From Escherichia coli (lineage in GTDB: Bacteria > Pseudomonadota > Gammaproteobacteria > Enterobacterales > Enterobacteriaceae): DNA of 64,000 nucleotides. Each line of letters begins with the position of its first letter. Position 1 is the stretch's first letter. A program made the position numbers. The stretch lies in the NCBI RefSeq assembly GCF_030384885.1, contig NZ_CP128613.1, one strand, 5' to 3'. Positions 6,001 to 9,000 of this stretch are shown piece by piece.

Positions 6001-9000
6001 AGTTGGCGATCGGCAGTTGTATAAAAACCTTTCCCCGGAATCTATCCGCGAAGAGGTAGAAGCCAGCTTGCAACGTCTGGGTATTGATTACATCGATATC
6101 TACATGACGCACTGGCAGTCGGTGCCGCCATTTTTTACGCCGATAGCTGAAACTGTCGCAGTGCTCAATGAGTTAAAGGCCGAAGGGAAAATTCGCGCTA
6201 TAGGCGCTGCTAACGTCGATGCTGACCATATCCGCGAGTATCTGCAATATGGTGAACTGGATATTATTCAGGCGAAATACAGTATCCTCGACCGGGCAAT
6301 GGAAAGCGAACTGCTGCCGCTATGTCGTGATAATGGCATTGTGTTACAGGTTTATTCCCCGCTAGAGCAGGGATTGTTGACCGGTACCATCACTCGTGAT
6401 TATGTTCCGGGCGGCGCTCGGGCAAATAAAGTCTGGTTCCAGCGTGAAAACATGCTGAAAGTGATTGATATGCTTGAACAGTGGCAGCCACTCTGTGCTC
6501 GTTATCAGTGCACAATTCCCACTCTGGCACTGGCGTGGATATTAAAACAGAGTGATTTAATCTCCATTCTTAGTGGGGCTACTGCGCCGGAACAGGTACG
6601 TGAAAATGTCGCGGCACTGAATATCAACTTATCGGATGCAGACGCAACATTGATGAGGGAAATGGCAGAGGCTCTGGAGCGTTAAATACTCAACACGATT
6701 CACCTCTGTTTCTGTGAAAACTGTGATTAAAATCTGTGATTCAAACAGGTTATTTTGAAAGTAAACATCGGTTATGCGATAATCGCGCTAATGTGATGTA
6801 AAAAGATACAGGGGTGTAATCGTGGCGGCAAAAGACAGGATTCAGGCAATTAAGCAAATGGTTGCCAACGATAAAAAGGTGACAGTCTCAAATTTGAGTG
6901 GGATTTTTCAGGTAACCGAAGAAACCATTCGCCGCGATCTTGAGAAGCTGGAAGATGAAGGCTTTTTGACCAGAACCTATGGTGGTGCTGTTTTAAATAC
7001 AGCGATGTTGACGGAGAATATCCATTTTTATAAGCGCGCTTCATCGTTTTATGAAGAGAAGCAGCTTATTGCACGCAAGGCGCTACCCTTTATCGACAAT
7101 AAAACCACTATGGCAGCCGATTCCAGTAGTACCGTTATGGAATTGCTCAAATTGTTGCAGGACCGTAGTGACCTGACGTTGCTAACTAACTCGGCGGAAG
7201 CGATTCATGTTCTGGCTCAATCAGAAATTAAAGTCGTTTCAACGGGGGGGGAACTAAACAAAAATACACTTTCCCTGCAAGGAAGAATTACTAAAGAGAT
7301 CATCAGCCGCTACCATGTCGATATCATGGTAATGAGTTGTAAAGGTCTTGATATTAACAGCGGCGCGCTGGACTCTAACGAAGCGGAAGCTGAAATCAAA
7401 AAGACAATGATCCGTCAGGCGACAGAAGTTGCGTTATTGGTTGATCACTCTAAGTTTGATCGCAAAGCTTTTGTCCAGTTAGCTGACTTTAGTCATATTA
7501 ATTACATAATAACTGATAAATCACCGGGTGCAGAGTGGATAGCATTTTGCAAAGACAATAATATCCAGCTGGTGTGGTAATTTAAGCACACGTTGTCAAT
7601 ATTATTTGTTCCTGCGCCTGGAAAATAAAATGATGATAAAGATGCGGCAAGTGAATTTGCCGCAATTGCTACCTTTTTAGCAAATCCGAGGCACCTAATG
7701 GAACAATATGATCAAATTGGCGCAAGACTGGACCGCTTGCCTTTGGCCCGGTTTCATTATCGTATATTTGGTATTATAAGCTTTAGTCTGTTATTAACGG
7801 GTTTTTTGAGTTATTCAGGCAATGTTGTTTTAGCAAAGCTGGTAAGCAATGGATGGTCAAATAATTTCCTCAATGCCGCCTTTACCTCGGCATTAATGTT
7901 TGGTTATTTCATCGGCTCTCTTACCGGTGGGTTCATCGGTGATTATTTTGGGCGGCGCAGGGCTTTTCGCATAAATCTTCTCATCGTCGGTATTGCGGCA
8001 ACAGGGGCCGCTTTTGTCCCTGATATGTACTGGCTCATTTTCTTTCGCTTCCTGATGGGCACAGGAATGGGGGCGCTGATTATGGTTGGCTATGCTTCGT
8101 TTACGGAGTTTATCCCCGCGACGGTGCGTGGAAAATGGTCCGCGCGGCTGTCATTTGTCGGTAACTGGTCGCCCATGCTGTCTGCGGCGATAGGCGTGGT
8201 GGTTATCGCTTTTTTTAGTTGGCGGATAATGTTTCTGCTGGGTGGTATTGGCATACTGTTAGCCTGGTTTCTCTCAGGTAAATACTTTATTGAGTCGCCT
8301 CGATGGTTGGCGGGGAAAGGGCAAATCGCAGGTGCAGAAAGCCAACTTCGTGAAGTAGAGCAGCAAATTGAAAGAGAGAAGAGTGTTCGTTTACCCCCGC
8401 TTACTTTGAATCAGAGCAACAGCAAGGCTAACGTAATCAATGGTACTTTCTGGCTGCTGTTTAAAGGGGAAATGTTACGACGTACATTAGTCGCGATTAC
8501 TGTTTTAATTGCAATGAACATTTCACTTTATACCATCACCGTATGGATACCGACCATATTTGTTAACTCCGGCATTGATGTTGATAAATCAATATTAATG
8601 ACTGCTGTTATTATGATTGGCGCTCCGGTAGGTATATTTATTGCGGCATTAATTATTGATCATTTTCCTCGTCGATTATTTGGCTCCGCCTTGCTTATTA
8701 TTATTGCCATGTTAGGCTATATCTATTCAATTCAGACTACAGAGTGGGCGATTTTAATCTATGGCCTGGTGATGATCTTCTTTTTATACATGTATGTTTG
8801 CTTCGCGTCGGCGGTTTATATCCCGGAGCTTTGGCCAACGCATTTACGCCTGCGCGGTTCGGGTTTCGTTAATGCCGTCGGACGGATCGTCGCGGTCTTC
8901 ACGCCTTATGGCGTTGCGGCACTATTAACGCATTATGGGTCAATCACGGTGTTTATGGTGCTTGGCGTGATGTTAGTGCTCTGTGCGCTGGTTCTCTCCA

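Follow-up and report, generated by a model that had tools for sequence, protein, structure and literature searches.

Three copies of the hexamer CTGTGA lie close together upstream of the gene ydjF in Escherichia coli, and the question that they raise is what, if anything, recognizes them. We analyzed them in a 64,000-nt stretch of the E. coli contig NZ_CP128613.1 (the window, to which all positions refer; Table 1), the start of which is filled on the + strand by the cluster ydjLKJIHG-ydjF-ydjE. The genes ydjLKJIHG form a conserved sugar-catabolic cluster for which, to our knowledge, neither the substrate nor the regulation is known. An initial annotation had read the repeat as a candidate autoregulatory operator for the DeoR-type regulator encoded by ydjF. 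On balance, the evidence leans towards positions 6700-6745 being the upstream control region of ydjF, in which conserved TCTGTG boxes, likely bound by YdjF, are combined with a weak CRP box that exists in E. coli only.

Conserved TCTGTG boxes upstream of ydjF and ydjL

All three copies of CTGTGA are present on the + strand where the initial annotation had placed them (6712, 6721, and 6734). They lie 83-110 nt 5' of the ydjF GTG at 6822, in agreement with the distance of about 80-110 bp given there. The 8-mer CTGTGATT also occurs twice as described, at 6721 and 6734, yet this identity is strain-specific. In K-12, O157:H7, and the other aligned strains the first of the two 8-mers is CTGTGATG, with a G at 6728, and all three CTGTGA copies are kept. 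Two further elements of the description have to be replaced. The copies are not in tandem phase, as their spacings of 9 and 13 bp are irregular, and the unit that is shared is TCTGTG, not CTGTGA.

This unit emerges from comparison with other genomes. A scan with YdjF yielded 22 orthologous loci with full ydjLKJIHGFE synteny from Escherichia, Citrobacter, the Klebsiella oxytoca group, Raoultella, Budvicia, Yokenella, Intestinirhabdus, and Symbiopectobacterium; the Serratia locus contains only a partial cluster. The boxes of copies 1 and 3 are nearly unchanged across 14-22 enterobacterial genomes, and the invariance statistics come from 14 representative ones. The upstream regions of more distant YdjF homologues, from Clostridia and Mucilaginibacter (L024-L033), are unrelated, and these homologues were left out. 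The alignments contain two conserved boxes in the ydjG-ydjF spacer, within which 6702-6712 (ACCTCTGTTTC) and 6733-6742 (TCTGTGATTC) are 100% invariant in the 14 genomes. In the ydjF coding sequence of the same genomes, 9% of the third-codon positions are invariant and the longest invariant run is 8 nt. Copies 1 and 3 of the hexamer are conserved at 86-100% per position, copy 3 falling within the second invariant run and copy 1 carrying a T as its last base in other genera (CTGTGT). The positions of copy 2 (6721-6725) rank with the most variable ones, and the copy itself is found in E. coli only. It is only the conserved TCTGTG cores, at 6711 and 6733, that are spaced by about two helical turns (22 bp).

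The boxes precede a strong core promoter. A promoter scan finds a single sigma-70-like site in the ydjF upstream region, with 10/12 hexamer matches and an extended -10 element. For the ydjG/ydjF spacer, these hexamers, TTGAAA and GATAAT, are already listed as a ydjF promoter that is RpoD-dependent and constitutive (Shimada 2014, PMC3946193), and published data document the binding of RNA polymerase, as well as of CRP, in vitro. The position of the -10 hexamer suggests a transcription start near 6790. Counted from this start, copies 1, 2, and 3 occupy about -78/-73, -69/-64, and -56/-51, and the -35 hexamer lies 3' of each of them.

The same core recurs at the ydjL promoter. An unbiased k-mer test of the two promoter regions puts TCTGTG/CACAGA first among the hexamers, with 5 occurrences against 0.10 expected (Bonferroni 1.4e-4): at 241 (-), 253 (+), and 328 (-) for ydjL, and at 6711 (+) and 6733 (+) for ydjF. 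TGTGAT is also enriched in the two regions (4 observed, 0.10 expected). Both promoters have ATCTGTG on the 5' side of the -35 hexamer at a distance of exactly 16 nt, and the similarity reaches beyond this word. The 37 nt 5' of the two -35 hexamers are identical in register at 24/37 positions (z = 5.4), which is the best match that the ydjF segment has in the 64-kb window, and of 21 genomes, 19 keep this register, with identities of 18-24/37. Strong conservation is also seen upstream of ydjL, where TTTGTGATCTnAGTTGTGAAA is followed by the palindrome, the -35 hexamer TTGACC, and the -10 hexamer AAGTAT, with a predicted transcription start near 310. The 10-mer AAAACACAGA occurs exactly both at 237-246 and at 324-333, where it lies over the ydjL Shine-Dalgarno sequence. 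In both promoters ACAGAGG or ACAGGGG, which contains TCTGT on the - strand, covers the Shine-Dalgarno sequence at about +19 to +23.

A half-site matrix built from non-E. coli ydjL palindromes only finds box 2 at 6731 (AATCTGTGATTC), which ranks 11 of 127,978 positions. A 12-nt motif common to both boxes was also considered and is not supported, since this matrix recovers box 2 and not box 1; the 6-nt core alone is shared.

YdjF as the candidate binding protein

A local regulator is the best explanation for a motif that is cluster-specific, fixed in position, and conserved in both promoters. The obvious candidate would be the DeoR-type protein YdjF, whose gene is adjacent. Its description as a DeoR regulator is borne out by its HTH_DeoR (PF08220, 2.9e-17) and DeoRC (PF00455, 2.4e-49) domains in Pfam. 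YdjF remains under the cut-off of all the named NCBIfam equivalogs, i.e. GlpR, AgaR, SrlR, FucR, DeoR, and UlaR, and its best matches, each below the cut-off, are GlpR, AgaR, SrlR, and FucR. The protein is uncharacterised in a published listing (Ishihama 2016). Elsewhere in the ydjF literature, a 1.9-fold rise in a Cpx over-activation array and an expression-cluster assignment were judged to be uninformative.

In the mechanism that we propose, the TCTGTG cores at 6711-6716 (about -79 to -74) and 6733-6738 (about -57 to -52) would be the recognition elements of a ydj-specific regulator. At ydjL the corresponding element would be the ATCTGTG at the equivalent place, 16 bp 5' of -35, as part of a palindrome of 16-24 bp that has its center at about -60.5. 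In this way YdjF would act on its own gene as well as on the ydjLKJIHG operon, and repression could come about through binding to several sites or through DNA looping to a further half-site near +20. We infer both the identity of the binding protein and the direction of regulation. A repressor role for YdjF is more likely than an activator role, although class I activators just as typically bind 5' of -35. FucR is an example of an activator in the DeoR family.

The arrangement has several features of DeoR-family systems. The regulator gene ydjF adjoins the sugar-catabolic operon. Short half-sites recur several times in each of the two promoters, and the conserved cores at ydjF are separated by the 22 bp mentioned above. 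The ydjL promoter contains a palindrome, and the further half-site near +20 would permit looping. It differs from such systems in that the ydj sites are placed 5' of -35 instead of over the core promoter. The operator of E. coli DeoR is a 16-bp palindrome, and we know of no DeoR-family operator that resembles ATCTGTG. The initial annotation had relied on the tendency of DeoR-family repressors to bind direct repeats. This tendency is seen in predicted DeoR-family motifs, which are often direct or tandem repeats with a period of 10-11 bp (Rodionova 2013, PMC3870299), and it is a reasonable precedent for the conserved cores with their 22 bp; the three E. coli copies are separated by 9 and 13 bp. 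The autoregulatory operator that it proposed can be retained as a candidate for copies 1 and 3, which are conserved and whose core recurs at ydjL, but not for copy 2, which is restricted to E. coli and belongs to the CRP box, a reading that the initial annotation had not raised. The ydjF promoter and the CRP box are known already, and the predicted YdjF operator appears to be new but ordinary in kind.

Several observations weigh against the assignment of the boxes to YdjF. The boxes span about -88 to -41 and do not lie over the -35 and -10 hexamers of ydjF, which is unusual for simple repression. Their location upstream of -35 makes simple occlusion by a repressor less likely and leaves the binding hypothesis unaffected. 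The half-sites also differ in their arrangement: those at ydjL form a palindrome, and ydjF has direct repeats or only one half-site. The half-site matrix misses box 1, where the overlapping 12-mer at 6701 obtains 3.75 bits (rank 370). No TCTGTG and no box-related matrix match is present in the ydjF-ydjE spacer, and no binding sites or targets of YdjF were found in the searched literature that mentions ydjF. Finally, the conservation of box 1 can be explained in part by its complementarity to the ydjF ribosome-binding site.

The ydjL promoter is silent in vitro and is switched on in the mouse gut (Naydich 2019, PMC6561318), and therefore fits tight, specific control. It was among the most consistent "healthy gut" sensors in a screen of E. 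coli promoters (PMC6561318). The predicted operator, ATCTGTG placed 16 bp 5' of -35 and palindromic at ydjL, could offer a handle on the targets of YdjF, on its inducer, and on the engineering of sensors.

RNA pairing, CRP, and chance as other explanations

The 5' part of box 1 overlaps a segment (6695-6713) that, in all species examined, is complementary to the Shine-Dalgarno and start region of ydjF. We entertain, as a tentative possibility, that this segment acts as an anti-Shine-Dalgarno element which pairs, across a loop of about 90 nt, with the ydjF ribosome-binding site and GTG in transcripts that read through from ydjLKJIHG. The RNA of the 141-nt spacer has a predicted folding energy of -40.8 kcal/mol (z = -4.35), and 0/200 shuffled sequences are as stable; in other lineages z reaches -5.4, -4.8, and -3.2, and in several it is only -1.3 to -2.6. 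A 12-bp helix between ACCUCUGUUUCU and AGGAAACAGAGGU is found in 15/15 aligned genomes, in the consensus structure, and in nine of nine single-sequence folds. In the alignment, 97% of its cells are paired, compared to 46-60% when the partner is slid. The substitutions in the 3' arm are nearly all from A to G opposite U, so that the pair is kept. The flanks of the helix are lengthened by differing sequences in Escherichia, Symbiopectobacterium, Serratia, and Intestinirhabdus, and such lineage-specific extensions reach significance in about 6 of the 13 lineages. The predicted duplexes of 19 genomes have energies of -18 to -29 kcal/mol. No intrinsic terminators are predicted in 6500-7000, which covers the ydjG-ydjF spacer, or in 1-400. 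An Rfam scan of 6400-7100 at E <= 1 returned no RNA family.

If this element is real, YdjF would be translated only from the short transcript made by its own promoter, and the amount of regulator would no longer follow the induction of the operon that it controls. It would be uncommon for a regulator gene to be insulated by such masking of its ribosome-binding site when transcription reads through. Fold-back inhibition of transposase translation in read-through transcripts of IS10 and IS50 was reportedly worked out in the laboratories of Kleckner and Reznikoff. As in those elements, the segment upstream of ydjF would be present only in transcripts begun outside the gene's own promoter, where it complements the ribosome-binding site and start codon. 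Unlike in those elements, a regulator gene would be insulated from an upstream operon, and the putative loop of about 90 nt would enclose the ydjF promoter.

A further-reaching proposal is that the boxes are conserved entirely at the level of RNA and not for protein binding, with the CTGTGA copies incidental or secondary. We consider this unlikely. The stability of the spacer fold in E. coli and some other lineages, the helix with its paired cells, the A-to-G changes, the flank extensions, and the missing terminator between ydjG and ydjF all speak for it. The core of the helix, however, shows almost no covariation, as the only two covarying cells both stem from one poorly aligned row and the core is otherwise invariant. 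The duplex energy in E. coli is unexceptional as well. Equal or better values are found at 5% of random positions and at 7 of the 65 open reading frame starts in the window, and this lowers our confidence in the RNA reading. Added to this are the lineages with modest z values and the fact that read-through from ydjG is assumed on the basis of the absent predicted terminator. Pairing with the ribosome-binding site also leaves both box 2 (copy 3) and the in-register match at ydjL unexplained. RNA pairing may nevertheless contribute to the conservation of box 1, as the two explanations are not mutually exclusive.

Copy 2 calls for an explanation of a different kind. The ydjF gene is among the new targets of cAMP-CRP found in vitro by SELEX (systematic evolution of ligands by exponential enrichment)-chip (Shimada 2011, PMC3105977), and Table S3 of PMC3105977 gives the box ACAGATTTTCATCACA for the ydjF/ydjG spacer. 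The reverse complement of this box is TGTGATGAAAATCTGT, the K-12 version of 6722-6737 in the window. The published box thereby consists of copy 2 and the TCTGT of copy 3 (TGTGA-N6-TCTGT), and only one of its half-sites matches the consensus. Copy 2 sits where the left arm of the ydjL palindrome would be, with three different bases in the center (CTGTGAT vs CACAGAT), and it is these three bases that make it a CRP-like half-site. We propose that the TGTGA of copy 2 is a novelty of E. coli alone, gained between the two boxes, and that it would have created, with the TCTGT of copy 3, a weak CRP box that would place ydjF under catabolite control. A species-specific CRP site could thus emerge through few substitutions between two older boxes.

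The strength of this site was assessed with a CRP matrix built from the 232 other boxes of Table S3. With 7.84 bits, the box at 6722 takes rank 33 in the 64-kb window; 83% of the training boxes score higher, and 6.5% of random 140-nt segments hold a CRP site that is as good. None of the non-E. coli genomes examined has a CRP site of at least 5 bits at this position; the closest relatives, E. whittamii and Escherichia sp. E1V33, reach 4.3 and 1.4 bits. These numbers count against the CRP part of our interpretation. The ydjF CRP site is weak and E. coli-specific, with in vitro selection as its sole support.

In class I CRP-dependent promoters such as lac, CRP is centred at -61.5. The ydjF box, with its center at about -60.5 from the predicted start and upstream of a sigma-70 promoter, resembles them in position, and like other SELEX-chip targets the ydjG/ydjF spacer is selected by cAMP-CRP in vitro. 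Unlike class I promoters, ydjF has a single consensus half-site and a low matrix score, a core promoter that is already strong and is classed as constitutive (PMC3946193), and a site that is not conserved beyond E. coli. It would be going further still to regard all three copies as CRP half-sites and the region as a CRP-dependent class I element only, to which YdjF does not bind. TGTGA is indeed the CRP half-site consensus, TGTGA/TCACA is the top 5-mer of the ydjF spacer taken alone (4 observed vs 0.14 expected), and the box assigned after genomic SELEX uses copies 2 and 3 and is centred close to the classic position. We nevertheless find this proposal decidedly unlikely. Only the 6722 register scores, the registers at 6713 and 6735 giving 1.2 and -2.5 bits; the conserved copies form no CRP-like site in any other genome examined; and the E. 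coli site is absent even in the closest relatives. In addition, the conserved word reaches 5' to TCTGTG, which is common to the non-CRP palindrome at ydjL. The conserved TGTGAT boxes at ydjL and ydjF were rejected as candidate CRP sites, as the E. coli 6722 register alone scores among the orthologs.

The repeat also has to be compared with what chance produces. CTGTGA is rare: with both strands counted, 24 copies would be expected in the 64 kb and 17 are present, so that three copies within 28 nt are unusual for this word. When any hexamer is allowed, 35% of Markov-1 simulated 64-kb sequences contain a triple within 30 nt, and the window has two such cases. The CTGTGA triple alone is weak evidence because such triples are common in simulated windows, and what raises the repeat above chance is the conservation of copies 1 and 3. 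A chance cluster in an AT-rich spacer, without a function of its own, would agree with this simulated frequency, with the second triple in the window, and with the unconserved copy 2, but is highly improbable in view of the invariant runs of 11 and 10 nt around copies 1 and 3 and the recurrence of the motif in the ydjL promoter. The second triple, the only other one in the window, is TGATAT, which occurs three times within 21 nt at 10817-10837, directly 5' of the ansA start codon (- strand).

Features and distribution of the ydj locus

Table 1 Features of the ydj locus in the window
Feature	Position	Strand	Description
CTGTGA copy 1	6712-6717	+	Core of conserved box 1; better read as TCTGTG 6711-6716
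CTGTGA copy 2	6721-6726	+	E. coli only; left (consensus) half of the published CRP box
CTGTGA copy 3	6734-6739	+	Core of conserved box 2
Conserved box 1	6702-6720	+	ACCTCTGTTTCTGTG(A/T)AAA; from alignments
Conserved box 2	6730-6751	+	AAATCTGTGATTCA(A/G)ACA(G/T)GTT; adjoins the -35 hexamer; from alignments
CRP-like box	6722-6737		TGTGATTAAAATCTGT (K-12 TGTGATGAAAATCTGT); center 6729.5, about -60.5 from the predicted start
ydjF sigma-70 promoter	6755-6783	+	-35 TTGAAA 6755-6760; 17-nt spacer; -10 GATAAT 6778-6783; TG 6775-6776 (extended -10)
Upstream arm of RNA pairing	6695-6713	+	ACGATTCACCTCTGTTTC; complementary to the ydjF Shine-Dalgarno/start region; overlaps copy 1 by 2 nt
Downstream arm of RNA pairing	6803-6823	+	ydjF Shine-Dalgarno region AAGATACAGGGGTGTAATCGT with the GT of the GTG start
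ydjL TGTGAT(C/T)TGAG box	222-233		Conserved
ydjL promoter palindrome	238-261		AAACACAGAT-CAAT-ATCTGTGTTT; perfect 10+10, 24 bp; center about -60.5; right arm carries ATCTGTG
ydjL promoter -35 hexamer	275-280		TTGACC
ydjL promoter -10 hexamer	298-303		AAGTAT (weak)
Third half-site copy	324-335	-	CCTCTGTGTTTT; overlaps the ydjL Shine-Dalgarno sequence
ydjL	344-1420	+	
ydjK	1447-2826	+	
ydjJ	2843-3886	+	
ydjI	3907-4743	+	
ydjH	ends 5695	+	
ydjG	5705-6685	+	
ydjF	6822-7580	+	GTG start; DeoR/GlpR-family regulator, 252 aa
ydjE	7698-9056	+	
pncA	after ydjE	-	

The gene names are those used in the E. coli genomes that contain a 501-nt probe from the window; the probe is 100% identical to E. coli 2013C-4282. 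Outside the probe the window is not identical to this best-matching strain, because the ydjL promoter has, at position 228 within its conserved box TGTGATCTGAG, a T in the window and a C in 2013C-4282 and in the other genera. The ydjG-ydjF region (6500-7000) is found in 4329 of 5426 complete E. coli genomes, is lacking in about 20%, and has one match on a plasmid. In Budvicia aquatica (L013), which belongs to another enterobacterial family, the cluster has 81-94% protein identity to that of E. coli and the promoter boxes are the same. This suggests that the whole unit, including its control regions, was transferred horizontally.

Two smaller elements flank the ydjF gene. Close to the predicted transcription start, TGTGATGTAAAA at 6794-6805 occurs in Escherichia only and resembles the K-12 sequence TGTGATGAAAA at copy 2. 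In the ydjF-ydjE spacer, a hairpin at 7644-7663 (GCGGCAA-gtgaa-TTTGCCGC) is kept across genera. It is not a canonical terminator, because the T-run begins about 10 nt further on. In a Citrobacter strain the hairpin carries apparently compensatory changes (CGACAG...CTGTCG).

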